Positions 42,349 through 55,858 are shown, numbered from the stretch's first letter. The stretch is 64,000 nucleotides of DNA from Planctomycetota bacterium (GCA_021776925.1 JAJFFB010000042.1:1961-65960), one strand, 5' to 3'. Notes: generated from the letters alone by a model not told the origin. Numbers and translations: made by a program.

Positions 42349-45300
42349 GTGAAGCTGCCGATGTTGCGCCCCGTGCTCCTCTCCTTCCTGTTCTGTGCCG
42401 TTGCGGCGATCACTTCCGCTGCCCTGCCGGCGCAGGAGCGCGCCACGCCGTCGAGCACCGGCGAGAAGCTCGCCCTCGAACAAGGCCGCGCGGCGCTGGC
42501 GGCGGGGCGGCACGCCGAGGCCGCCGGCCACTTTTTCTACGCCCTGACGCACAGTGAGGATCCGGCCACGGTGCTCGGCCTGCTGTTGGAAAACGCCCAC
42601 GGCGACGCCGACGCGGCGCTGTTATGGAGCATCGACCTTGCCGCCTGGCAGGTCGAAGCCAACGGACGCCTGAACCTGCCCGAGGCCTGGCGGGAGTTTT
42701 TCTCCACCGAAGAACTTCCCTTCGAGCTGGCCAAGGCGCGCGCGCTGGCGCTGCGCGAAGTGCAACAACGTCTGCGCAAATTGGCCAAGGGGCGCAAGGC
42801 TGGCAACCGCATCGAGGTCGAGTGGCTGGAAGATCTGGCGCGGGTGCTGGCCGAGCCTTCTCCGCGTCTGCAGGAAGCCACCGCCGACCTCGGCCCCGAA
42901 ATCCGCATCGAACCCGCCGATTGGGCGCGCAGCCTCGCCAACCTGAAACGGCTGGCGACTTCCCTGGTGAGTTCGGGCCAGTGGACCGAAGCGGTGCGCG
43001 CCGCGCGTGCGCTGCGCGGCCTGGCTACCCAGGCCGGCTTCGGCAAGGACCTGATGGGACCCAAGGCGCCCGATCTGAGCAGCGAGGGTTCCACCGCCAA
43101 CGACGTCCTGCGGCGCGCGCGCGCGGCCTTGCACGACAAGGAAGGAATGGCTCTGACTCTCGAAGAACTCGAGAGCATGAACCTCGAAGAGCAGCGCGAG
43201 CTGACCGTTGAGCGCGCGTCTTTCGGCAAGCCGGCGGTCACCCATTCGCCGCGCGGCTGGTACCGCGTCGAGACCAGTTGCGGCTGGGAAACTCTTTACG
43301 GCACCGCCACCACGGTCGAATTGCACCACCAGCGCCTGGTCGGCTGGTATGGGCGCGATCCCTTCGAGAACCGCCCGGGGCTGGTGCGCATCGTGCCCGA
43401 AGCGCACGGCCTCGAGGCCGAGGGCACTCCCTACTGGTGGGCGGGCGGTTTCCAGGGTGGCGACACCACCGTGCTGCAGTTCACCATGAGCACCATCCCC
43501 GGGCTGGGCCGCGGTCTGACCCACGAACTGACCCACCGCTTCGACGGCGGCATGTACGGCGGGCTGCCCGGATGGCTGAGCGAAGGCCGCGCCTCGTGGA
43601 CCGCCGGCGCCTACGGTTCGATGCACGACAAGGAGTTCGTCGCCAATCACTGCAGCTTCGGCACCATGGAATCCACCTGGCGCATGGGTTACGGCGGCGA
43701 GGCCAAGCTGCGCGAACTGGTCGACGGCAGCCTCGAGGAGTACCGCGACAACTACACAGCCGGCTACGCGCTGTTCATGTTCCTCAACACTTGGAGCGGC
43801 GAAGAAGAGGGCGGCGAACAGCTTTTCCACGACCGCCTGCAGAAGTTCATGCAGGAGAAGAAGCGCCTGCGTAACGACCCGATCGAGGTCTTCGAGTACT
43901 ATTTCGCCGACGGCGAAGACGGCCGTCCGGAAGGATTCGCCGCCTTTGCCGAAGCCTTTCAGGAATACCTCAAAGGCTTTTACTGGAAGGAGCCGGCGGA
44001 GTGGCGGGACCGGCGCTACACCCAGTCCACGCCGCCGGGTGATCCGGCGCCGCGCGTCTATGACGAGCCGACCTGGACCTGGTTGCGCTCCAAAGCAGAA
44101 CCTTTCTTCGGGCAGATCCACGTGCGCCAGGCGGCGCAACTCTTCGCCGAGCTGGGCAAGGCGCGCGAAGCCGTCGACGCCTTCCACTGGTGTCTGCAAG
44201 TTGACGAGCCGTCGTTGGACACCTTGTTGCAATTGGAACAGCAACTGCTCGCTGCCGGCAACCCGGACGCCGCCTGGATGGTGCGTCACTGGCCGCGTTT
44301 CCGCGCCGCCGCCGGGGTGCCGGTCGTGGCGCCCTTCGCCCGCGATCTCGACGACCTGCGCGCCTTGCTCGACATGCAGGAAGAGGCGGCGCGTGCGCTC
44401 GCGGCGAGTTCGCCGCTGAGCGCCGCCGCGCTGGCCGGCGACCGCGACCGCGTGGCCCAACGTCTCGGCTTGCCCGCACTTGAAGATCTGCCCGTGGAGC
44501 AACCCGCTGCGCCGCCACCCCTGCACCCTTTTGATGCTCCTACGCGGCTGCTTGGTGCCGCGGGGTGGTCCGAGGTCGGCATGACCGGTCTCGAAGACCG
44601 GCGGGTGGCCGGATTGTGGTACCAGGATCCCGGTCTCAGCATGCACGTCGGCCGGCGCGAGGCGCGCGGCGGCACCGGCAAGCTCGACCGCACCGCGCAC
44701 TGGCGCGATGCGGTGGTGCTGGCCGACCGGTGGTTGGAACCGGGCCGCTATCGCATCCGCTCCCGCGTCGAAGCGACCACCGCCTACATGAGCGGCGGCC
44801 TGGTCTTCGGCTGGACGCGCCGCGACCGCAACTTCCGCCTCGGCTTCAGCATGGGCGACTACAACTACGCCATCGGCAAGGAAGAGCATTTCGACGAGAT
44901 CGACGGCGTGCACTGGAGCCTGACCGGTCTCTATCCGCGCATCGGTTCGAAAAGCGGCACCCTGACCTTCGGCAGCGAACGCAACCATTTCGAGTTGGAG
45001 ATCCTGGTCGACGGGCCCACCGCCGAGATCTTCATGGATGGCAAGCCGGTGGCCCTGTTCTCGACCGTCGACGGCAGTTCGATCCAGGGACGCATCGGCT
45101 ACTACACCTCCAACGGCGCGCTCAAGGCCCAGGCCACCAAGGTCCAGCGCCTCGACCGCAGCGCCGCCGCACCCGGCGGCAGCGCCCTTGGGGGGGGGCT
45201 GAATCCGCGCCGCCGCGGCGCCGACCGCTGGCGCGACCTGATCGGCCGGCCGGTCACCGATCTGCCGCTGGCGCCCTCAGGCGAAGTGCTGCTGTGGTTC

Positions 45301-45723
45301 CCCGAGCAGAGCGAGACCAAGCTCGATGGCTTGCAGGACGGCGACTGGTACGAACGCGTGGCCGACGCGATGGACAGCATCCTCGACGTGCTCGACCCGG
45401 AACTGCCCTCGCAGGCGCTGTTGATCGTGGTGCCGCCGAGCTTTCCGCAAGCCGACGTGGACGCATTGCGCGAGGACTTCGGCGCCGCAGTCGCAGGCGG
45501 CCTTCATTTCGCCCGCCACTTCATGATCGGCCGCATCGAAGAGGACGGACGCACTCTGCGCGGCTGGACCTCGCCGGTCCTCGGATTCATCGATCCGGCA
45601 GGGTTTTTGCGCTACGCCCAGCGCCAGAGCCGTTTCAGCAACCGGCTCGACGAGAGCTTGCGCCACTTGATTCTGCAGCACCAGGACCACAGCCGCCCGG
45701 GCACCGCCGGTGCCGGCGATTAG
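42349..45723 (+). CDS. Large secreted protein with gluzincin-type HExxH peptidase domain, helical/TPR-like region and lectin-like beta domain
   Basis: Signal peptide (LPA|QE); THELTH...WLSEG; beta-rich segment with GRIGY. Confidence 0.6.
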   Translation: MKLPMLRPVLLSFLFCAVAAITSAALPAQERATPSSTGEKLALEQGRAALAAGRHAEAAGHFFYALTHSEDPATVLGLLLENAHGDADAALLWSIDLAAWQVEANGRLNLPEAWREFFSTEELPFELAKARALALREVQQRLRKLAKGRKAGNRIEVEWLEDLARVLAEPSPRLQEATADLGPEIRIEPADWARSLANLKRLATSLVSSGQWTEAVRAARALRGLATQAGFGKDLMGPKAPDLSSEGSTANDVLRRARAALHDKEGMALTLEELESMNLEEQRELTVERASFGKPAVTHSPRGWYRVETSCGWETLYGTATTVELHHQRLVGWYGRDPFENRPGLVRIVPEAHGLEAEGTPYWWAGGFQGGDTTVLQFTMSTIPGLGRGLTHELTHRFDGGMYGGLPGWLSEGRASWTAGAYGSMHDKEFVANHCSFGTMESTWRMGYGGEAKLRELVDGSLEEYRDNYTAGYALFMFLNTWSGEEEGGEQLFHDRLQKFMQEKKRLRNDPIEVFEYYFADGEDGRPEGFAAFAEAFQEYLKGFYWKEPAEWRDRRYTQSTPPGDPAPRVYDEPTWTWLRSKAEPFFGQIHVRQAAQLFAELGKAREAVDAFHWCLQVDEPSLDTLLQLEQQLLAAGNPDAAWMVRHWPRFRAAAGVPVVAPFARDLDDLRALLDMQEEAARALAASSPLSAAALAGDRDRVAQRLGLPALEDLPVEQPAAPPPLHPFDAPTRLLGAAGWSEVGMTGLEDRRVAGLWYQDPGLSMHVGRREARGGTGKLDRTAHWRDAVVLADRWLEPGRYRIRSRVEATTAYMSGGLVFGWTRRDRNFRLGFSMGDYNYAIGKEEHFDEIDGVHWSLTGLYPRIGSKSGTLTFGSERNHFELEILVDGPTAEIFMDGKPVALFSTVDGSSIQGRIGYYTSNGALKAQATKVQRLDRSAAAPGGSALGGGLNPRRRGADRWRDLIGRPVTDLPLAPSGEVLLWFPEQSETKLDGLQDGDWYERVADAMDSILDVLDPELPSQALLIVVPPSFPQADVDALREDFGAAVAGGLHFARHFMIGRIEEDGRTLRGWTSPVLGFIDPAGFLRYAQRQSRFSNRLDESLRHLILQHQDHSRPGTAGAGD

Positions 45724-48182
45724 TTGCCGCGGCTGCGCCGGCGCTGGCGCGGCCCCTGCACTTCGATCTCGGTGAAGCCGACCGCCGCGGCGCCGAGCTG
45801 GCCGCCCTCAACTTCGAGGATCTGCACGCGCAGCTTGCGCAGATTGCGCGCTTCCGGAAACCTGACCTCGGTCTTGCTGCGGTAGTGCGGGTCGACCTCG
45901 ACCTCGATCGGATCGTCGCGGTCGAGCCAGATGCGCAAGCGCTTGGCGCGCGGGTTGTTCTGCTGCTCGGCGGTGATCGTGCGCGCGTGTGAGAACAGCA
46001 GCTTGTCGGCCTTGACCGCACGGCGCAATTCGACCGAGATCTCGGGCGCCTGGTCGTTGGGCGCGCACACCCAGCGCGAGTAGTAACGGTTGTCGGCGAC
46101 CATCTGGGGGTTGCCGCCCGAACTCGCGGTCACGCTCGGCTGATTGCGCGGCACCAGATTGCGGCGTGCGTCGGTCGGATAGGAACTGATGTTGCTGGCG
46201 GTGGTCTCATCGATTTCGACCAGGGCGATGCCGGATCGCAGACGCGCGTTGCCGTCGCACAGAGCCACCGCGCGCATTTCCCAGGTACCGGTCTTCTCGA
46301 AGACGTAACGGCCGGAGTAGCGCACCGTCGAGGTGGGTTCTTCCGGCGGCAAGCTGTTGTAGACCATGGTCCATTCGCCCTGCGGCTGCCGTGCCCAGTA
46401 TTCGACTTCGGTGATCTGGTGGGTCTCGAGTGCCGCCTGGTCGATCCGGTGCACCCAGAAACTTGCCGGCGAGCCGGTGATCACGTGCAGTTCCATCGGT
46501 CCGGCCTTGGGATCGGACTTGGTCAGGCGCTTTTTCTTGCGCCCGTGCGGATCGGTCACCGCGGCGCGCGTGGCGCGTTCCAGAAACAGCACCGCGAAGC
46601 AGGTCGCGGATTGCGAGCGGCCCCATGGGTCGGACCAGCCGCCTTCTTTGTCCTGGTTGTTCAAAATGACCTCGGCGCCTTCCCAGTACCACTCGTAGTG
46701 ACCGATCGACTCGATGTCGAGAACCGAACCCACACGTTCGACTCCGTAGAGGTAGTAGTACAGCCAGTTGCGGCCGACGCGCGGATTTCCAGAGACCGAC
46801 CAATACTGGGTCAGCCAGTTGAGTCCGTAGTCGATCTGCTTGTCGATCTTCGAGGCGAGGCGTGAATCCAGGCGGTCGCCCAGGCCCTTGCGGCAGATCA
46901 TCAAGGTGGCGATCCCAGCCACGGTCATCGATCCGGTGTCGCGTTTCGGGTTGACCGGCCGGTAGGAGAAACCGGCGATGTCGCGCCTGTTGCCGTATTT
47001 CTCGGTCAGCTTGACCTCGACCTTCTGTTGCTTCAATTGATGATCCAACACTCCATTGGCGAGGTTGACCCACACCTTTTGCGGAACTTCCAGTCCGCTC
47101 TCCGCGGCGGCGCGCAGGCCGAGGGCGGCGAATTGGGTGCACGATAGATCCGGATTGCCATGGGGATATCCCCAGGTGCCGGAACTGCGGCTCTGCCAGC
47201 TGATCAGATCACCGAGCAGCTCTTCCATCCACGGCAAGTACTCATCGTTATGCAGCGCTTCCAAGGCCATCATGTGGCAGCCGATCGAATAAGTGCGCGC
47301 GGTCGCGCTTTCGCCCAGGTAGGCCAGGCCTTCGAGGATCGCCGGATGACGCGGCGACACTCCGCTCTTGGCCAGAGTGTAGATCGCCAGCGCTGTGGTG
47401 CCATTGCGATAGCCGCCCTGATCCTGGCCCCAGGAACCATCGAGCAACTGGCGCTCGAGCAGCCACTTGACGCCACGATCGATGGCCGTGTTGATCTGAT
47501 CCTGGGTGACGTGCTCCCAGCGCTGCAGCTGGAAGCCCCAGGCGCCGCCGCCGTTGTTGACCTTGACCAATAGGTGGTTGTTGCCGGGTTTCAGGCTGAG
47601 GAAAACCGACTCGTCTTTGGGGTTGACGCCACGGCCGATGGTGCGGCTGAGCAGCATTTCGCCGTTGAGCCACAGGGCCACGCCGTCGTCGCTGCCGAAA
47701 GTCACCTTGAGCAGGGTCGCGGCGCTGGTGTGCACCTGACGGTAGAGATAGGCCACCGCCTGCTCGTTCCAGCCGGTGACCCTGGCCGGTGCGGTCAGCA
47801 CCTTGGCGAACTCGATCACGCCGACGTCGGCGGCGGTCGCCGGACCGGCCGGCGCGCCGATCGGCTTCCAGGCGAAACGCGCCTTGCCCTTGCCGGTGTA
47901 CTCGTCTTGCAGCGCAGGCCACTGCTTGCCGGGCTTCATCTTGCGCAGGCTCTTTTCCGGCTTGTGCTCGGGAGTGACGTCGGTGTGCCCCTTGGGATGA
48001 TCGAAAGGGCCAGCGGCATACCACGGCCCCCAGGTGACACCTGCGGAGGGGTCCTGGGCCGGAAGCCGAGCGGCCAGTACCGCGAAAAGGACCGCGGTAG
48101 CCAGGGTCAGCGGGGAATTGGGTGCAGCCAGAGCCAGACGGCGGCGCAGCGGCGGCCGTGGGGGGGGTGGAGGGCAGACCAT
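45720..48182 (-). CDS. Secreted multidomain protein: PA14-like domain, prenyltransferase/squalene-cyclase-like alpha-barrel, discoidin-like C-terminus
   Basis: GSDDGVALWLNG, QLLDGSWG, DLSCTQFAALGL, YYLYGVERVG, QDKEGGW. Start uncertain. Confidence 0.7.
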   Translation of the reverse strand: MVCPPPPPRPPLRRRLALAAPNSPLTLATAVLFAVLAARLPAQDPSAGVTWGPWYAAGPFDHPKGHTDVTPEHKPEKSLRKMKPGKQWPALQDEYTGKGKARFAWKPIGAPAGPATAADVGVIEFAKVLTAPARVTGWNEQAVAYLYRQVHTSAATLLKVTFGSDDGVALWLNGEMLLSRTIGRGVNPKDESVFLSLKPGNNHLLVKVNNGGGAWGFQLQRWEHVTQDQINTAIDRGVKWLLERQLLDGSWGQDQGGYRNGTTALAIYTLAKSGVSPRHPAILEGLAYLGESATARTYSIGCHMMALEALHNDEYLPWMEELLGDLISWQSRSSGTWGYPHGNPDLSCTQFAALGLRAAAESGLEVPQKVWVNLANGVLDHQLKQQKVEVKLTEKYGNRRDIAGFSYRPVNPKRDTGSMTVAGIATLMICRKGLGDRLDSRLASKIDKQIDYGLNWLTQYWSVSGNPRVGRNWLYYYLYGVERVGSVLDIESIGHYEWYWEGAEVILNNQDKEGGWSDPWGRSQSATCFAVLFLERATRAAVTDPHGRKKKRLTKSDPKAGPMELHVITGSPASFWVHRIDQAALETHQITEVEYWARQPQGEWTMVYNSLPPEEPTSTVRYSGRYVFEKTGTWEMRAVALCDGNARLRSGIALVEIDETTASNISSYPTDARRNLVPRNQPSVTASSGGNPQMVADNRYYSRWVCAPNDQAPEISVELRRAVKADKLLFSHARTITAEQQNNPRAKRLRIWLDRDDPIEVEVDPHYRSKTEVRFPEARNLRKLRVQILEVEGGQLGAAAVGFTEIEVQGPRQRRRSRGN

Positions 48183-48609
48183 CGGAACCGCTCTGCATTC
48201 TATGCAGGATTTTCTGACCTTGGAGCTTTCTCTCAAGACCGCGCCGAGTCGGTACGCAAAGGGTGTGACATGAGTCGTCCCTCCCGCTACCGCCTCACCG
48301 CGACCGCCGACCGGCGCCGCGGGGTCGCCGACCAGGCGGGTGCGGCGGTGCTAACGGGACGGGGGGAGAGCCGCTGGCTCGCCCATCCGTCCACTCGTAG
48401 TTGGTTCGACGAGTTGGATCAAGTCGCGGTGATGGACACCGAAACGGATCCCCTGGGTGGCTTTCAACGAAGCCCGCCTGGGAGGCTGAGGATGCGCCGG
48501 GGTCCCGGTCCATAGGGGGGATGGGCTGGATTCCGTTGAGTCCCGCTCGCCGGGGCTCGCTCCAAGCTAGGATCCACAGGGTCGGCAATACGCTGCCGGC
48601 CCTGTTTTC

Positions 48610-49125
48610 ATGCGTGGACTGCTGCTGCTCGTCGCCTTCGCCGGCCTGCTGATCTGGTGGGTGCTGCCTCCCTCACCTCCTGGACCAGCAGAATGGGTGC
48701 GTGATCTGACCGCCGACCTGATCGCGACCGCCGATGCGGACCTGGACAAGGACCAGGTATTCGCAGCGTGGGCGGCGCATTTGCGGCCGCTGGTTCCGCG
48801 CTATGCCCGCATGGAAACCGGCAACGTGCGCGTGCGCCGCGAAATGCAGCGCTTCTACGATCGCGTCATGCACGACCCCGAGGCGGTCCTGGCCGGCATT
48901 CAGGTGCGTCTGTTGAACCAAGAAGAGGTGCGCCGCGGCGACCGTTTCGAAGGCGCCGAGAAATTGCACCGAGTCGGGTTGCTGCTGCCGGCTGCGGGGC
49001 TGATGGGCGCGGAATATTGGAGTCTCGACCTGGGACTTTTCCAACGCCACTGGATGGTGCTGCGGGCGCCCGATAAAGGCAGCGCGCCGCCACCGGGATT
49101 CGGTGACGGCGCGACCGGAGGCTGA
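48610..49125 (+). CDS. Hypothetical membrane-anchored protein
   Basis: ATG start, N-terminal TM helix, coding-like composition; fills the gap between genes. Confidence 0.55.
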   Translation: MRGLLLLVAFAGLLIWWVLPPSPPGPAEWVRDLTADLIATADADLDKDQVFAAWAAHLRPLVPRYARMETGNVRVRREMQRFYDRVMHDPEAVLAGIQVRLLNQEEVRRGDRFEGAEKLHRVGLLLPAAGLMGAEYWSLDLGLFQRHWMVLRAPDKGSAPPPGFGDGATGG

Positions 49126-49191: not shown

Positions 49192-50484
49192 TCAGACGAA
49201 ACGCGTGACGCCGGGGCGGGCCACCCCTGGATCGGGCAGTTCGTTGATCCAGGCGTAGGCCGGCGGAGTCAGATCGAGCTGCGACTGATAGGCCTGCTCC
49301 CAGGTCACGGTCTGGCCGGAGTAGGCCGACATGCGCGCCATCAGCGCGAGCATCGTCGACTTGATCATGTAGTCGCCGTTGTTGATCGGCGTGTCGTTGC
49401 GGATCGCCTCGAACAGCGCGTTGTGCTCGTTCTGGTACATGTCGTCGGGGCCGTCGCCGCGCCAGCGCCACTTGTTCTCGCCCTGGATGCGGTGGTGCTG
49501 CAGCGCGGCGGTTCCCTTGGTGCCGAAAGCGTAGTCCGACACGTCGTGGGAGGTGCCGTTCATCTGCCGGCAGCTGCTGAAACCGCGCACGCCGTTGGCC
49601 CATTCATAGACCGAGTTGAAGTGGTCGTAGACGGTGCCGTACTTAGGGTCAGTGCGCACGATGCGGCCGCCGCTGGCGGTGACCTTGGCGGGGGCTGCGT
49701 CGCCCATCGCCCACAGCATCTTGTCAAGGCTATGGATGTGCTGCTCGGCGATGTGGTCGCCCGACAGCCACGGGAAGTACAGCCAGTTGCGCATCTGGTA
49801 CTCCATCTCACTCCATTCCGGCTTGTGCCCGCGGTGCCATAGACCGCCGGTGTTGTAGGTGCACTGCAGCGCGGTGATCTCGCCGATGTCGCCGCTGTGA
49901 ATGCGCTCGAAGGTCGCCTTCTTGGCGAACTGGTAGCGGTAGCACAGGCCGGAAACCAGTGACAAGCGCTTTTCGGCGGCGCGCTTGCACGCCGCCTCGA
50001 TGCGGCGCAGGCCGGGGGCGTCGACCGCGACCGGTTTTTCGACGAAGAGGTGTTTGCCCTGTTCGACCGCGTATTCGACGTGCAGCGGACGGAAGTGTGG
50101 CGAGGTCGCGAGCAGCACCACGTCGACCTGGTCGATGACCTGGCGGTAGGCGTCAAAGCCGGTGAAGCGGCGCTCAGGTGATACGTCGATCTTGCCGGCG
50201 AGGTCACCGGCCTTTTCCAGATTGGCCAGGCTGTTCTCCAGCATGTCGGAGAAGGCATCGCCCATCGCCCACAGCTTGACGTCGGGGTCGGCGCGCAAGG
50301 CGTTGGCGGCGGCGCCGGTGCCGCGTCCGCCGCAGCCGATCAGGCCGATCCTGAGGGAGTCATTGGTGCCGCTGTGGGCCATTCTCGACCAGCCCGGCAG
50401 GGTGGTCGCCAGGGGCAGCGCGGCGCCCAGGCGCAGCATGCTGCGGCGGCTGGGATAGGGGGCGGAGGAATCGTTTGGGGACAT
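49192..50484 (-). CDS. Tat-exported Gfo/Idh/MocA oxidoreductase (paralog A)
   Basis: SRRSML Tat motif, IGCGGRG, EKPVAVD, GDHIAEQHIH. Confidence 0.92.
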   Translation of the reverse strand: MSPNDSSAPYPSRRSMLRLGAALPLATTLPGWSRMAHSGTNDSLRIGLIGCGGRGTGAAANALRADPDVKLWAMGDAFSDMLENSLANLEKAGDLAGKIDVSPERRFTGFDAYRQVIDQVDVVLLATSPHFRPLHVEYAVEQGKHLFVEKPVAVDAPGLRRIEAACKRAAEKRLSLVSGLCYRYQFAKKATFERIHSGDIGEITALQCTYNTGGLWHRGHKPEWSEMEYQMRNWLYFPWLSGDHIAEQHIHSLDKMLWAMGDAAPAKVTASGGRIVRTDPKYGTVYDHFNSVYEWANGVRGFSSCRQMNGTSHDVSDYAFGTKGTAALQHHRIQGENKWRWRGDGPDDMYQNEHNALFEAIRNDTPINNGDYMIKSTMLALMARMSAYSGQTVTWEQAYQSQLDLTPPAYAWINELPDPGVARPGVTRFV

Positions 50485-50538
50485 GGTTGTTGGAAGATTT
50501 CGACGCGGGACCTGCGGAGGACGGAAGCACCAAGCCTA

Positions 50539-51570
50539 TCACCGGTGCGGGAAATTCGGGCTGCGCCAACTCCACCGCGCTCCCTCGGCATCCAGGCCGC
50601 GCAGCAGGAAGGACGCGCCTTCAAAGGAGGGCAGAAGCTCGCGGACACCCGCACCGCCGAGCACGCAGGCGGCCGAAGCGAGCGCGTCGGCCTGCGTCGC
50701 ACTGGCCGCCACTACACTGGCGGCGACGCGCGTCTGCACCCCGAGACCGGTGGCTGGATCGAGGATGTGGGAGTAGTTGCGGCCGTCGATCTCAACGCGC
50801 TGGTAGAGATCGCCGGAGGTCGCCACCGCGCAACGCGCCAGGCGCAGCCGGAGGGCAGCGGAAGCGGTGGCCGGGAAGGGATCGGCGAGTTCCACCCACC
50901 AGCCGTCCTCGCCGGGCGGTGGGTCGCCGAGGGCGAGGTCGCCCCCGCCATCGACGAGCGCGCGCGGGCATCCGGCCAGGCGCAGCGCGAGCAGCGCCTG
51001 GTCCAGCGCGTAGCCCTTGGCGATTCCGCCCAGATCCAGGCGCGTACCGCGGTGTTCGAGACGCGCGCGCGGTGGGTCGCCGGTCAGGCTCAGGTGCTGC
51101 CAGCCGCAAGTGGCGAGCGCGGCCTGCAGGCGGTCGGCGCGCGGCAGACTTTCTTGGCGGCGTGACCGTCGCCACAAGCGCACGCAAGCGCCCAGGGTGG
51201 GATCAAAAGCGCCCGTGGTGGCCGCGGCCCAGTGCTTGGCGGCCTTGAGCACCGCCCATAGATCGGGAGAGACGGGGACGGCTGCCGCAGCGCCAGCGCG
51301 GTCGGAAAGCTGGTTCAACTCACTCGCGGGCAGATAGTCCGACAGCATCTGGTCGAGGGCGGCAATCTTCGCAAAGGCCTGTGCCGCAGCGGCGTCGGCC
51401 TGGCCAGCTGCGGCGGCGTAGCACACCACGCGGAAGGTGGTGCCCATGTGCGCCTGCTGAAATTCATAGCGTTGCAGAGTTGCACCCGCGCCAGCATCAG
51501 GCGCGCGCGGCGCGGCGAGGCCGCAGCCGCCGAGCGCCAAGAAAAGCACGGAACGGCGCGCCAGGGACAT
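50539..51570 (-). CDS. apbE: FAD:protein FMN transferase
   Basis: MGT, GAFDPT, DLGGIAKGYALD, GGD, ATSGD, YSHILDPATG, ADALA. Confidence 0.93.
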   Translation of the reverse strand: MSLARRSVLFLALGGCGLAAPRAPDAGAGATLQRYEFQQAHMGTTFRVVCYAAAAGQADAAAAQAFAKIAALDQMLSDYLPASELNQLSDRAGAAAAVPVSPDLWAVLKAAKHWAAATTGAFDPTLGACVRLWRRSRRQESLPRADRLQAALATCGWQHLSLTGDPPRARLEHRGTRLDLGGIAKGYALDQALLALRLAGCPRALVDGGGDLALGDPPPGEDGWWVELADPFPATASAALRLRLARCAVATSGDLYQRVEIDGRNYSHILDPATGLGVQTRVAASVVAASATQADALASAACVLGGAGVRELLPSFEGASFLLRGLDAEGARWSWRSPNFPHR

Positions 51571-51638
51571 GGATTGCTTGACTCGTCCGGTATCCTGCGT
51601 GACCGGCCGGGTGCGGATCTGTATACCCGGTCCCACGC

Positions 51639-52901
51639 ATGCGCGTCCACCCCGCTTCTCTTCGTCGTTCCGCCGCCGCCGCCATCCTGGCAGCGGCCGC
51701 CTGTGGTCTGGCCCAGCCCGCTCCTCTGGCCGCACAGGATCCGGAAGCGGCCGCCGCTGCGCCCGTTCCAAATGGAGATGCAACCGCAGTTCCGCCGGCG
51801 CAGGAGCCAGTCGCAGAACCACAAGAACCGGTGGCTCAGAGCGTCGCCGGGGTCTACCCAGACATGCCTCCGGGGCGGCCGCCACTCCTCGAGATCAAGG
51901 CTGCGGTGGCCCGCAAGGCCGAAGAAATGAAGCCCTACCAGGACCGCATCCTGGGCACCAAGGTCACCTTCGAGATGCTGCCGATCGCCGGCGGCGAATT
52001 CCTGCTCGGCAGCCCGCAGGCCGAAGACGACCGCGGCCCCGACGAAGGCCCGCAGGTGCAGGTGCGCATCGAGCCCTTCTGGATGGGCAAGTACGAGGTC
52101 ACCTGGCAGGAGTACCACGCCTTCCAGTTCAAACTTGATCAGCAGGCGCGCGACAAGGGGCAGGCCGAGGCGCTCCCGCAGGATGCCTGGGCCGACGCCG
52201 TTTCGCGCCCCACGCCGCCCTACGTGCCGATGGATTTCGGCATGGGTATCGAGGGCTGCCCGGCGGTGTGCATGACCCAGCTCGCCGCGATGAAATATTG
52301 CAAGTGGCTGTCGATGAAGACCGGCCGTTTCTATCGTCTGCCCACCGAGGCCGAATGGGAATACGCCTGCCGCGCCGGCACCACCACGGCCTACAGCTTC
52401 GGTGACGACCCCGCGGACCTCGACGATTACGCCTGGCACTTCGACAACGCCGACGACCAGTACCAGAAGGTCGGCCAGAAGAAGCCCAACCCTTGGGGCC
52501 TGTACGACATGCACGGCAACGTGTCCGAGTGGGTCATGGATGGCTACGACAAGGGTTGGTACAAGCGCCTGGTGCGGCGCACCGACGGCGGCAGCAAGGC
52601 CGTCCTCCAGACCTTGAACAGGGCGCAAAAGCTCTACCCTCGAGTGGTCCGCGGTGGCTCCTGGGACGACGATCCCGAGCGGTTGCGCTCGGCCGCGCGC
52701 CGCGCCTCGAAGAAGGGTTGGAAGATCCAGGACCCGCAACTGCCGAAGAGCATCTGGTACCTCACCGACGCCCCCTTCGTCGGCTTCCGCGTCGTCCGCC
52801 CGCAGGTCGAGCCCAGTCCTGAAGAGATGGCCCGTTACTGGGACACCGATCTTGAAGACGTGCTCGAAATCCAGATGAAGCAGCGCCAGGGCGGGCGCTG
52901 A
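51639..52901 (+). CDS. Secreted formylglycine-generating-enzyme-fold (SUMF1/EgtB/PvdO family) protein
   Basis: RLPTEAEWEYACRAG, PNPWGLYDMHGNVSEW, RGGSW, VGFRVVR; the FGE catalytic Cys pair is absent. Confidence 0.9.
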   Translation: MRVHPASLRRSAAAAILAAAACGLAQPAPLAAQDPEAAAAAPVPNGDATAVPPAQEPVAEPQEPVAQSVAGVYPDMPPGRPPLLEIKAAVARKAEEMKPYQDRILGTKVTFEMLPIAGGEFLLGSPQAEDDRGPDEGPQVQVRIEPFWMGKYEVTWQEYHAFQFKLDQQARDKGQAEALPQDAWADAVSRPTPPYVPMDFGMGIEGCPAVCMTQLAAMKYCKWLSMKTGRFYRLPTEAEWEYACRAGTTTAYSFGDDPADLDDYAWHFDNADDQYQKVGQKKPNPWGLYDMHGNVSEWVMDGYDKGWYKRLVRRTDGGSKAVLQTLNRAQKLYPRVVRGGSWDDDPERLRSAARRASKKGWKIQDPQLPKSIWYLTDAPFVGFRVVRPQVEPSPEEMARYWDTDLEDVLEIQMKQRQGGR

Positions 52902-52959
52902 GCTCCACGCCCCCGGTCTTTTTGAACCGCCCCACCCCCCCCTTGTTAACCTGAACGCC

Positions 52960-54267
52960 ATGTCGCGATTCCTCCCTGAACGCCGTCAATTCCTCCAACA
53001 GGGTTCGGCCGCCGCCCTCGGCGCCGGCATGATCCTGCCGCACGCTGCCTCCGCCCTCGGAGCACGGGACGGTCGCCTCGACACCCTGCGCATCGGTCTC
53101 ATCGGCTGCGGTGGGCGCGGCACCGGCGCCGCCAGCGAGGCGCTTTCCACCGCCGGCGAGGTGCGCCTGGTCGGCATGGCCGATGCCTTTTCCGACCGCC
53201 TCGAAGGTGCCCTGGGCCAGCTGGAAAAAGGCCACGGCGCCAAGGTCGACGTGCCCGAGAGCCGCCGCTTCGTCGGCTTCGACGCCTATCGGCAACTGCT
53301 CGCTCTCGACCTCGACGTGGTGGTGATCGCCACCCCGCCGGGCTTCCGCCCGATCCATTTCGAACACGCGATCGAGCGCGGCTGCCACGTCTTCATGGAG
53401 AAGCCGGTGGCGGTCGACGGCCCCGGCGTGCGCAAGGTGCTGGCCGCGGCCCAGCGCGCCAAGGAGAAGAACCTCAAGGTCGGCGTGGGGCTGCAGCGCC
53501 ACCATGACCGGCGCTACCAGGAGACCATCCAACGCCTGCAGGCCGGCGCGATCGGCGCCATCCGTCTGCTGCGCGTCTACTGGAACAGCAGCGGCGTGTG
53601 GGTGCGCCCGCGCCAGCCCGGCCAGACCGAGATGGAGTACCAGATGCGCAACTGGTATTACTTCAACTGGCTGTGCGGCGACCACATCACCGAGCAGCAC
53701 ATTCACAACCTCGACGTCGGCAACTGGGTCATGAACGGCTATCCGGCCCGGGCCCAGGGCCAGGGCGGGCGCCAGGTACGCACCGGCATCGACCACGGCG
53801 AGATCTACGACCACCACATGGTCGAGTACACCTACGCCGACGGCACCACGATGCTGTCACAGTGCCGCCACATCCGTGACACCTGGACCCAGGTCAACGA
53901 ATTCGCCAGCGGCGCCGATGGCCACTGCAACATTGGCAGCGGCCAGATTGAGCGCGGCGACGGCGAGAAGTGGCGCTTCCGCGAAGAGCGCGGCGACGCC
54001 TACCAGGTCGAGCACGACGTGCTATTTGCCGCCATCCGCAATGACCAGCCGCACAACGAAGCCGAAAACGGCGCCAAGAGCACGCTGACTTCGATCCTCG
54101 GCCGCATGGCGACCTACTCCGGCCAGGTGGTGACCTGGGAGCAGGCGCTCAACTCCGAGATCGCCCTGGTTCCAGCGCGTTATGCCTTCGATGCAGACCC
54201 GCCGACCCTGCCCGGAGCCGACGGCCGCTATGCCGTTCCGATGCCTGGCAGCACGCAACCCTTCTAG
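52960..54267 (+). CDS. Tat-exported Gfo/Idh/MocA oxidoreductase (paralog B)
   Basis: ERRQFL Tat motif, IGCGGRG, EKPVAVD, GDHITEQHIH. Confidence 0.92.
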   Translation: MSRFLPERRQFLQQGSAAALGAGMILPHAASALGARDGRLDTLRIGLIGCGGRGTGAASEALSTAGEVRLVGMADAFSDRLEGALGQLEKGHGAKVDVPESRRFVGFDAYRQLLALDLDVVVIATPPGFRPIHFEHAIERGCHVFMEKPVAVDGPGVRKVLAAAQRAKEKNLKVGVGLQRHHDRRYQETIQRLQAGAIGAIRLLRVYWNSSGVWVRPRQPGQTEMEYQMRNWYYFNWLCGDHITEQHIHNLDVGNWVMNGYPARAQGQGGRQVRTGIDHGEIYDHHMVEYTYADGTTMLSQCRHIRDTWTQVNEFASGADGHCNIGSGQIERGDGEKWRFREERGDAYQVEHDVLFAAIRNDQPHNEAENGAKSTLTSILGRMATYSGQVVTWEQALNSEIALVPARYAFDADPPTLPGADGRYAVPMPGSTQPF

Positions 54268-54325
54268 CCTGGCTCTTCCTTCCAGCCTCGCCCCATCTTC
54301 CAGCCCCGCCCCATCTACCAGCCCC
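54263..54325. repeat. 18-nt tandem repeat, about 3.5 copies, intergenic
   Basis: TCTAGCCTGGCTCTTCCT / TCCAGCCTCGCCCCATCT / TCCAGCCCCGCCCCATCT / ACCAGCCCC. Confidence 0.8.
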
Positions 54326-54339
54326 AAGCGTCCTCGACG

Positions 54340-54813
54340 ATGAGCCACAAGATCCTGTTCGTGACCCTGTCCACCCTGCTGCTCGCGGCCCTCGCCGGGC
54401 CGCTGCTGCCCGGCACTTCGACTTCGCTCCTTGCCCAGGAGCCGGAGCACGTTGAAGAAGAAACGCCGCTGCAGCAGAACATGTCGGTGATCAACAAAGG
54501 CATGCGCAAGCTGCGCCGCGGCCTGCGCAAGGCCGAGAGCCTGCCCGCAGCCCTGCCGGTAATCCTTGAAATGCAGGCCGCGGCGCACTTCTGCAAGACT
54601 GAAACCCCGCCGCTGGCGGCACGCCTGGAGGGCGACGAAAAAGCCTCCTTCATCCAGGGATACCGCCTGCAGGTCATCGGACTTCAGCGTCTGATGCTCG
54701 ACTTGGAGAGCGCGGTGGTCGAGGGCAACATGGAACAAGCGCAGGCGGTCTATCAGCAGATGAAGGCCACCGAAGACGAGGGCCACGAGATCTACACCGA
54801 AGACGAGGAATAG
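54340..54813 (+). CDS. Secreted cytochrome b562-like four-helix protein
   Basis: Signal peptide; all-helical; LQQNM near the N-terminus and EGHEIY near the C-terminus match the Met/His ligand positions of b562. Confidence 0.65.
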   Translation: MSHKILFVTLSTLLLAALAGPLLPGTSTSLLAQEPEHVEEETPLQQNMSVINKGMRKLRRGLRKAESLPAALPVILEMQAAAHFCKTETPPLAARLEGDEKASFIQGYRLQVIGLQRLMLDLESAVVEGNMEQAQAVYQQMKATEDEGHEIYTEDEE

Positions 54814-54895: not shown

Positions 54896-55858
54896 GTGCG
54901 CAGTGGGCACGCCGACCGCTTGCGCCGGGCACTGCTGTTCGGGCGGCTGCCTGCGCATGCGGGCAACCGTCGGCATCCGCTCCCGGCGGGCTTGTGCGAG
55001 GAGCTGGAGCAGGAGTACTGCTGGGTATCGATGCGCTCAGAGCAGCAGGTCGCGGCCGCCGACGGATCACTCAAGCACCTGTTACGGCTGCACGACGGCG
55101 AAGCGATCGAGGCGGTCGCGCTGCCCGGAACCACGGCGCCTTCGGCGTGCTTGTCGAGCCAGGTCGGTTGTGCGGTGGCGTGCACTTTCTGCGCATCGGG
55201 TCTGCACGGCGTAGTGCGCAACCTGCACGCCCACGAGTTTCTCGAGCAGGTGGTGCTGCTGCGTCGCGCCCGCCCGTTGCGGCGGCTGGTGTTGATGGGG
55301 GCGGGCGAACCGACCCACAACCTGGGCAACCTCGCCAACGCGCTCGAGGTCCTGCGCAACGAAGGCGAAATCGGTCCGCGTCACGTGATGGTGTCGACGG
55401 TCGGCCCGGCAGCGGCCATTCAGCGGCTGGCCGAGTTGGGGCGGCGCTTCACCCTGGCGCTTTCCCTGCACGCGCTGGATCAGGAGCTGCGGGCGCAGCT
55501 GATCCCGACCCAGGCTCACGTCGCGCCGCTCGACTTGCTGCAGGCCGCCGACGCCTACGCCGCGCGCAGTGGCCGAGCCTACCAATTGGAGTGGGTGCTG
55601 CTCGGCGGCGTCAATGACTCGAACGCGCAGGCCCGCGATCTTGCCGCGGCCCTGCGCGGTCGCCGCGTGCACGTCAGTCTGATCCGTTGGAATCCAGTTG
55701 CCGAGCTGGATCAGCTGCAGCCGTCGGGCGTCGCCCAGGCCGAGGCCTTTGCCGCGCGGCTGCACGGGGCCGGAGTCTCGTGCCGATTGCGCCTGACGGT
55801 GGGTGGCGACAGCGACGCCGCCTGCGGCCAGTTACGCCGCCGGGCTCAGCTGGCGTAG
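54896..55858 (+). CDS. RlmN/Cfr-family radical SAM RNA methyltransferase
   Basis: CLSSQVGCAVACTFC, MGAGEP, SLH, GVND, AACGQL. Start uncertain; the frame is open further upstream. Confidence 0.85.
   Translation: MRSGHADRLRRALLFGRLPAHAGNRRHPLPAGLCEELEQEYCWVSMRSEQQVAAADGSLKHLLRLHDGEAIEAVALPGTTAPSACLSSQVGCAVACTFCASGLHGVVRNLHAHEFLEQVVLLRRARPLRRLVLMGAGEPTHNLGNLANALEVLRNEGEIGPRHVMVSTVGPAAAIQRLAELGRRFTLALSLHALDQELRAQLIPTQAHVAPLDLLQAADAYAARSGRAYQLEWVLLGGVNDSNAQARDLAAALRGRRVHVSLIRWNPVAELDQLQPSGVAQAEAFAARLHGAGVSCRLRLTVGGDSDAACGQLRRRAQLA

Follow-up and report, generated by a model that had tools for sequence, protein, structure and literature searches.

What does ApbE modify when its gene lies in a cluster without any canonical flavin mononucleotide (FMN)-binding protein? 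The question is raised by positions 49,192 to 54,813 of a 64,000-nucleotide stretch of DNA from a Planctomycetota bacterium (GCA_021776925.1, JAJFFB010000042.1:1961-65960), here called the window. Five genes lie there, encoding two dehydrogenases of the Gfo/Idh/MocA family (GfoA and GfoB), an ApbE, a protein with the formylglycine-generating enzyme (FGE) fold and a protein resembling cytochrome b562 (Table 1). ApbE flavinylation is a known bacterial way of fixing flavins outside the cytoplasm. On balance, we think it probable that the locus represents a conserved periplasmic redox module, in which the FGE-fold protein is flavinylated by ApbE and relays electrons from the Gfo dehydrogenases to haem.

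Gene identities were assigned by Pfam and NCBIfam profile matches, and export signals were judged by eye; all five proteins start with a hydrophobic or twin-arginine N-terminus. An earlier annotation made from the DNA alone (the sequence-only reading) had described the five genes in a mirror layout, Gfo(-) apbE(-) / FGE-fold(+) Gfo(+) b562-like(+), and both the positions and the family identities agree with it. The same annotation had seen no canonical FMN-binding protein in the cluster, and Pfam indeed finds no FMN_bind domain among the five genes. Known ApbE substrates include FMN_bind, NqrB/RnfD, DUF2271, Flavodoxin_4 and FMN_red proteins (bioRxiv 10.1101/2024.03.13.584918). The five cluster genes contain none of them, and PF03781 is the only domain matched by the FGE-fold protein. 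In a six-frame scan the motif D-[AGS]-x-[ST]-G-[AS]-[ST] was absent from all open reading frames (ORFs) of at least 100 amino acids (aa) on the window's contig, and all 20 matches in the genome lay on other contigs.

ApbE and its FGE-fold partner

To assess how far the pairing of ApbE with the FGE-fold protein is conserved, we scanned relatives with one genome per species. The scan gave 205 relatives of the FGE-fold protein, of which the best 80 loci were kept; their orthologs, at 53-64% identity, represent four phyla, Planctomycetota, Verrucomicrobiota, Acidobacteriota and Bacteroidota. Neighbouring genes were located by tblastn and phmmer with defined queries, ORF clustering being confounded by long antisense ORFs in the G+C-rich DNA. 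ApbE was present in 59 of the 80 loci, and in 55 it lay at most 1.5 kb from the FGE-fold gene. A Gfo homolog was present in 53, in all but one of them (52/80) no more than 1 kb away, and 41 loci contained both partners. Neither was detected in nine loci, at least five of which are cut by a contig end near the gene. The gene order varies from divergent apbE / FGE-Gfo in Planctomycetota to Gfo-FGE-apbE in Acidobacteriota, and this variation speaks against a single operon having simply been inherited.

The two proteins also occur as single chains. Among the 120 longer homologs listed, four (P0055, P0060, P0079 and P0084) consist of an N-terminal ApbE (E ~1e-70) and a C-terminal FGE fold (E ~1e-40) that is about 60% identical to the window protein and keeps the loop described below. 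An AlphaFold2 (AF2) model of P0079, built from a mixed alignment, was uninformative on domain packing, with a predicted template modelling score (pTM) of 0.56 and a predicted local distance difference test (pLDDT) of ~40-70 in the FGE half.

A quick maximum-likelihood tree was calculated for 86 ApbE domains, the non-FGE members of which were drawn from only six related genomes. All 60 FGE-adjacent ApbEs, including the window ApbE, and the four fusions fall into one clade (Shimodaira-Hasegawa-like approximate likelihood ratio test, SH-aLRT, 97), separate from the Nqr-type clade, the C191-type clade and a fourth, C65-type clade. Nqr-type and FMN_bind-adjacent paralogs group apart from the FGE-linked copies even where one genome contains both. 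Four genomes with an FGE-Gfo pair but no adjacent ApbE were checked, and each has two to three ApbEs elsewhere, one of them best matching the FGE-linked clade (39-51% identity for the best hits).

The window ApbE has an N-terminus, MSLARRSVLFLALGGC, that resembles a lipoprotein signal (LGGC). Among solved structures it is closest to Ftp of T. pallidum (E 5e-37), with which the HI[IL]DP and ADALA stretches align. The position that contacts the isoalloxazine ring holds a Tyr, as LSDYLP is matched by LSAY of chain 4xdt and by LSAN of chain 7mgt. A Tyr at this position separates FAD-binding, transferase-class Ftps from pyrophosphatases (PMC4767422). By this residue the window ApbE is assigned to the FAD-binding transferase class and is predicted to transfer FMN to a protein Thr or Ser.

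The genome contains four ApbE paralogs and three FMN_bind proteins. NqrB and NqrC motifs were found on contig C32 with their own ApbE alongside, RnfD and RnfG motifs on contig C43 with none, and the third FMN_bind protein on contig C191, again beside its own ApbE. All canonical targets thus lie away from the cluster, which makes the window ApbE a surplus copy lacking any such target in its vicinity. It could still be supposed that the neighbourhood is fortuitous and that this ApbE acts solely on the canonical Nqr, Rnf or FMN_bind targets of other contigs, since the genome has such targets and the loop motif alone carries little information. We find this scarcely credible, as it is already contradicted by synteny over four phyla, by the fusions, by the separate ApbE clade and by the dedicated ApbE at two of the three canonical loci. 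Our results show that the association of ApbE with the FGE-fold protein is real, ancient and specific, far beyond chance.

The loop of the FGE-fold protein as a candidate flavinylation site

The sequence-only reading had drawn attention to a D-A-V-S-R-P-T stretch, which occupies residues 186-192 of the FGE-fold protein and is the sole D..[ST]..[ST] in it. The bare pattern is weak evidence by itself, since about 0.3 matches to its three fixed positions are expected by chance in a 420-aa protein; conservation and gene context raise it above this level. Of 81 aligned sequences of the family, 80 retain Asp186, 79 Pro191 and 78 Tyr195. Every sequence has Thr (76) or Ser (5) at position 192, and 76 have Thr or Ser at position 189. 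Position 190 is mainly Arg or Lys and never Gly, and the slot taken by G-A in the canonical ApbE motif D-x-x-[ST]-G-A-[ST] reads [RKMHIQ]-P across the family.

Of the 120 closest database homologs, 119 have the loop, as do, by a strict pattern, 52 of the 57 longer homologs below 900 aa, two of the five misses deviating at position 2 alone. It was absent from all 63 more distant multi-domain FGE-sulfatase proteins and from PvdO in a pairwise alignment, and no solved structure carries it. On these comparisons the DAVSRPT loop is specific to the subfamily, which comprises at least 7,898 protein clusters (90% identity) at E <= 1e-60 from at least four phyla. Verrucomicrobial orthologs of 736-830 aa (P0043, P0045, P0057, P0065, P0104 and ~45 more) have a ~440-aa N-terminal extension with weak FG-GAP repeat matches ahead of the FGE fold; they keep DAV[TS][RH]PSKPY, with Ser instead of Thr as the last motif residue.

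The loop had further been expected to be conserved only near apbE, and in this strict form the expectation fails. It is kept in 20 of the 21 loci without adjacent apbE, and also in a 35%-identical FGE-fold paralog of the same genome (contig C178:9701-11677). This paralog is short, with a lipoprotein-like start and the sequence DAVSKPS; the next gene encodes a different Tat (twin-arginine translocation) Gfo and reaches the contig end. Its position beside an exported dehydrogenase suggests that the loop marks FGE-fold proteins paired with such enzymes. The single locus with a wholly different loop (L087, one case) has neither ApbE nor Gfo nearby. Judged from sequence, the loop tracks the FGE-Gfo partnership and not apbE adjacency.

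The catalytic copper-binding Cys pair of a true FGE presumably follows the RGGS motif. In the window protein, RGGSW is followed by DDDPERLRSAARR, and no Cys occurs past the EYAC motif, so a Cys pair behind RGGSW is impossible. The FGE Cys pair is therefore missing, as had been claimed. The fold itself was modelled well by AF2 for residues 88-420 (pLDDT 85.6, pTM 0.88).

Between the dehydrogenases and haem

Both Gfo proteins appear to be Tat substrates, with RR motifs that were read by eye. GfoA has SRRSML close to its N-terminus and contains GxGxxG and EKP; GfoB has ERRQFL and reaches 16.5 in TIGR01409 against a cut-off of 16.7, a model that gives no match to GfoA. The two are 47% identical. 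The GfoB type is the commonest downstream neighbour of the FGE-fold gene, and GfoA orthologs (61-68% identity) occupy the same place, in mirror layout behind ApbE, in two relatives. The gap between GfoA and apbE is 54 bases, and the two genes are apparently co-transcribed. The model for the glycoside 3-dehydrogenase BT_2158 (NF058561) gives 32.4 and 43.3 bits for the two Gfos, far from its cut-off of 750. GRGTGAA, present in both Gfos, was considered as a canonical flavinylation motif and rejected, as it is the Rossmann glycine loop and ends in Ala.

Other dehydrogenases occur at related loci. A PQQ (pyrroloquinoline quinone)-type glucose/sorbosone dehydrogenase (PF07995) lies downstream of ApbE-FGE, in the usual place of Gfo, at L014:6650-7918 and in L017, L018, L021, L022, L025, L028, L032 and L036. 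These nine copies, from nine of the 80 loci, are 86-95% identical, thus represent about one lineage, and count as weak evidence. In a Dyadobacter of the Bacteroidota (L085:8657-11986) the gene after the FGE-Gfo pair encodes a SusC-like TonB-dependent receptor, recognized by eye, which hints at a carbohydrate-utilisation locus.

The last gene of the cluster encodes the b562-like protein. It stays below the family cut-offs (Table 1; 29.7 bits against 130 for NF011632), and E. coli b562 chains match its residues 3-105 with E 0.0025. Met48 and His149 hardly vary across 12 homologs and map to positions 7 and 102 of b562, which we take to be the Met and His axial haem ligands. Of 24 genomes from the family to which the window belongs, 21 have the gene, and in seven relatives it is syntenic, either after FGE-GfoB or directly after the FGE-fold gene (L094). 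Elsewhere a haem domain is fused to the FGE-fold protein itself: one or two CxxCH motifs precede the FGE-fold domain in 17 of the 80 orthologs, all of them verrucomicrobial or acidobacterial, and the planctomycete-type fusion P0064 has a PSCyt1 cytochrome domain. A haem partner therefore recurs, as a b562-like gene in this lineage and as a fused cytochrome c domain in others.

A secreted FGE-fold protein that is linked with ApbE, exported dehydrogenases and haem proteins is probably a new kind of flavin carrier. The scheme, inferred in all its steps (flavinylation, the modified residue, the bound NAD(P), the direction in which electrons flow and the substrate), would run as follows. A sugar-like compound would be oxidised by the two apparently Tat-exported Gfo dehydrogenases, which probably have NAD(P) tightly bound. 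The FGE-fold protein, having lost the copper-binding Cys, would serve the specialised ApbE next to it as dedicated substrate and receive FMN from it, joined by a phosphoester bond to Thr192 of the loop D-A-V-[ST]-x-P-T-x-P-Y. The flavin tethered in this way would accept hydride from dehydrogenase-bound NAD(P)H and pass single electrons to the haem protein, b562-like here and a fused cytochrome c domain in other phyla. NAD(P)H is a two-electron donor and haem a one-electron acceptor, and a flavin is the usual converter between the two. The sequence-only reading had cast the FGE-fold protein as an ApbE-linked relay to the cytochrome; the ApbE link, the specificity of the loop and the recurrent haem partner support this in part, whereas the restriction of the loop to apbE-bearing loci does not stand.

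An alternative is that the FGE-fold protein is a catalytic oxidase of the PvdO/FGE kind, acting on the dehydrogenase product or on a secreted metabolite, with ApbE maturing a needed factor and no electron relay. FGE-fold enzymes do include oxidases. Moreover, PvdO is the closest solved structure in Foldseek (5hha, E 3.4e-18, 28% identity), followed by a Treponema denticola variable protein and then by FGE (E ~1e-13), and the PvdO model NF051459 is the top NCBIfam match (E 6.6e-33). However, the latter match reaches only 114 bits against a cut-off of 500, PvdO does not share the loop, and the FGE Cys pair is missing. Together with the cytochrome c fusions and the b562-like pairing, which point to electron transfer, this makes a catalytic role improbable in our view.

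Several observations weigh against a flavin on the FGE-fold protein. To our knowledge, the FGE fold has not been seen with flavin in any experiment or structure. The loop D-A-V-S-R-P-T does not match the canonical motif, having R-P in place of G-A; position 189 is Ala in 5 of the 81 sequences; and the loop is modelled by AF2 with only moderate confidence (pLDDT ~70). Adjacent ApbE is lacking in 21 of the 80 loci, and the b562-like gene gave no phmmer match in any of the 80, being confined to its own lineage. In the account of PMC12052999, G-A is present in all proven sites of the motif D-x-x-[ST]-G-A-[ST], and substitution of the G or the A reduced flavinylation of a model substrate.

A further such point is a second conserved module, found in eight relatives (L114-L121) and at the start of a contig of the same genome (C65:37-2150, L004/L104). 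Its order is a nucleoside-symporter-like MFS protein and a Tat Gfo, both of them often present, then an ApbE of a separate clade and, immediately after it, another Tat Gfo, with a membrane monohaem (CxxCH) cytochrome downstream in three of the eight relatives. A search for relatives with the C65-type ApbE gave only four distant loci, and the context came from the relatives' genomes. None of the eight relatives has an FGE fold in this module. An FGE-fold flavin carrier is thus not needed for every ApbE-Gfo pairing, and ApbE could serve dehydrogenases in some other way. The Gfo downstream of this ApbE has a conserved KE[AS]D[AS]xTQGWEVY segment, the Thr of which is Val in one of nine sequences. 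This Gfo could carry flavin itself on that segment, as a different non-canonical ApbE target, or ApbE could help the dehydrogenases otherwise. Two side observations concern this module. Contigs C178 and C65 might adjoin in the actual genome, which would give the order FGE-Gfo-ApbE-Gfo, and in one relative a di-haem cytochrome c peroxidase/MauG-family gene (L116:2011-3624; PF03150, E 7.5e-38) lies directly upstream.

The second module bears on another explanation, in which ApbE and the FGE-fold protein cooperate with the flavin placed elsewhere. ApbE would either modify a Gfo subunit or supply FMN, as a flavin-trafficking protein or FAD pyrophosphatase, and the FGE-fold protein would be a non-flavin subunit for docking or for binding substrate or metal, its loop being an interface. 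A distinct ApbE clade between or before Tat Gfo genes without an FGE fold, in all eight relatives and on contig C65, fits this explanation, as do the conserved segment of the C65-type Gfo, the missing G-A in the FGE-fold loop and the nearest solved ApbE, which belongs to the Ftp family of T. pallidum that includes pyrophosphatases. On the other hand, apart from the Rossmann GRGTGAA, no motif resembling a flavinylation site is seen in GfoA, GfoB or their orthologs (consensus, by eye), and the partner in all four ApbE fusions among the 120 longer homologs listed is the FGE fold, never Gfo. The window ApbE has the Tyr of the FAD-binding class, and the Thr of the C65-type segment is not invariant. 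We hold a flavin outside the FGE-fold protein to be unlikely, if far from negligible.

Neighbouring genes, related systems and implications

The features of the locus and the genes around it are collected in Table 1. A promoter and terminator scan of the locus gave nothing better than shuffled sequences.

Table 1. Genes of the cluster, the candidate site and neighbouring ORFs, in window coordinates
Feature	Position	Strand	Details
GfoA	49192-50484	-	430 aa; PF01408 E 3.4e-9 (37.9 bits) and PF22725 E 8.5e-11 (42.4 bits), above cut-off
ApbE	50539-51570	-	343 aa counted from MSLARR; PF02424 E 5.8e-68, 229.7 bits (cut-off 25.6)
FGE-fold protein (SUMF1/PvdO-like), secreted	51639-52901	+	420 aa; PF03781 E 3.7e-44, 151.7 bits
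Loop D186-A-V-S-R-P-T192, then P-P-Y	52194-52214	+	residues 186-192; candidate FMN attachment site Thr192
GfoB	52960-54267	+	435 aa; PF01408 E 6e-12 (46.8 bits) and PF22725 E 1.6e-6 (28.5 bits), above cut-off
b562-like protein, four-helix, signal peptide	54340-54813	+	157 aa; PF07361 E 1.2e-5, 26.3 bits, below cut-off 30
Large secreted-looking protein, upstream	42349-45723	+	1124 aa
Large secreted-looking protein, upstream	45720-48236	-	838 aa; weak squalene-hopene-cyclase-like repeat matches only, E ~0.006
ORF	48610-49125		171 aa; no family match
Radical SAM protein, after the b562-like gene	54896-55858	+	PF04055 E 6.7e-12; no sign of module membership

We compared the module with systems that share parts of it. 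ApbE-flavinylated carriers (FMN_bind proteins of NqrC/RnfG/PplA, NqrB/RnfD, DUF2271, Flavodoxin_4 and FMN_red) likewise have a dedicated adjacent or fused apbE, are exported, present a loop leading from Asp to Thr/Ser and have haem partners in the cluster. The window protein differs in that the FGE/SUMF1 fold is not among the known substrates and in that [RKMH]-P replaces G-A. Unlike Flavodoxin_4 and FMN_red, moreover, the FGE fold has no known flavin-binding relative. PvdO, a dihydropyoverdine dehydrogenase, shares the periplasmic location, the FGE fold and the absence of FGE's catalytic Cys, but its alignment shows no DAVxxPT loop, and no pyoverdine gene context was seen in the window.

The dehydrogenases share the Gfo/Idh/MocA fold, and apparently the twin-arginine signal, with the glucose-fructose oxidoreductase of Zymomonas and the glycoside 3-dehydrogenase BT2158 of Bacteroides. 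Such Tat Gfo enzymes are exported folded with bound NADP (PMC8121099). How BT2158 regenerates its cofactor is unsolved according to the same source, the authors of which propose the reduction of "another as yet unidentified sugar". While those enzymes are thought to regenerate the cofactor through a second sugar, the set of ApbE, FGE-fold and haem proteins here suggests a protein acceptor. Periplasmic sugar oxidation in which electrons run from a flavin through a haem subunit into respiration is known from the glucoside 3-dehydrogenase LacABC, named in PMC8121099, and from FAD-dependent glucose dehydrogenase with its cytochrome c subunit. In these enzymes the FAD sits in the catalytic GMC-type subunit, whereas we propose NAD(P)-based catalysis here, with the flavin on a separate ApbE-modified FGE-fold carrier.

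The b562-like protein resembles the soluble cytochrome b562 of E. coli in length, four-helix pattern and Met/His ligand positions; it differs in staying under the Pfam and NCBIfam cut-offs and in being encoded inside a dehydrogenase cluster. Cytochrome b562 is the natural electron acceptor of the soluble glucose dehydrogenase (sGDH) of Acinetobacter. In engineered fusions it takes electrons from PQQ sugar dehydrogenases (PMC12011955).

Our literature search returned no publication joining ApbE with FGE-sulfatase, SUMF1, Gfo/Idh/MocA or PvdO, nor formylglycine with ApbE or flavinylation. The main text of an eLife survey (PMC8238504), as far as it was available to us, does not mention sulfatase, FGE, Gfo or b562, and FGE-sulfatase, PF03781, GFO_IDH_MocA and PF01408 do not appear in the accessible part of its supplement text, while its full cluster tables might list the association. 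Neither sulfatase nor Gfo is mentioned in the accessible part of a review (PMC12052999). Earlier new classes of ApbE substrates came from the same kind of gene co-localisation (bioRxiv 10.1101/2024.03.13.584918).

As a tentative generalisation, which we would stop a little short of calling probable, FGE-fold proteins with D-A-V-[ST]-x-P-[TS]-x-P-Y may form a new class of ApbE substrates with a non-canonical motif and their own ApbE lineage. They would act as a widespread periplasmic NAD(P)H-to-haem converter that wires Tat-exported Gfo-type, and perhaps PQQ-type, sugar dehydrogenases into respiration. If this is true, ApbE flavinylation follows a broader sequence rule and extends to more folds, and motif-based surveys have overlooked a large family. 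The very common "formylglycine-generating enzyme family" proteins of four phyla would gain a function and would not be sulfatase maturases. It would also answer how Tat-exported Gfo/Idh/MocA enzymes with bound nicotinamide shed their electrons, which bears on periplasmic glycoside and sugar oxidation and on the design of enzyme electrodes.

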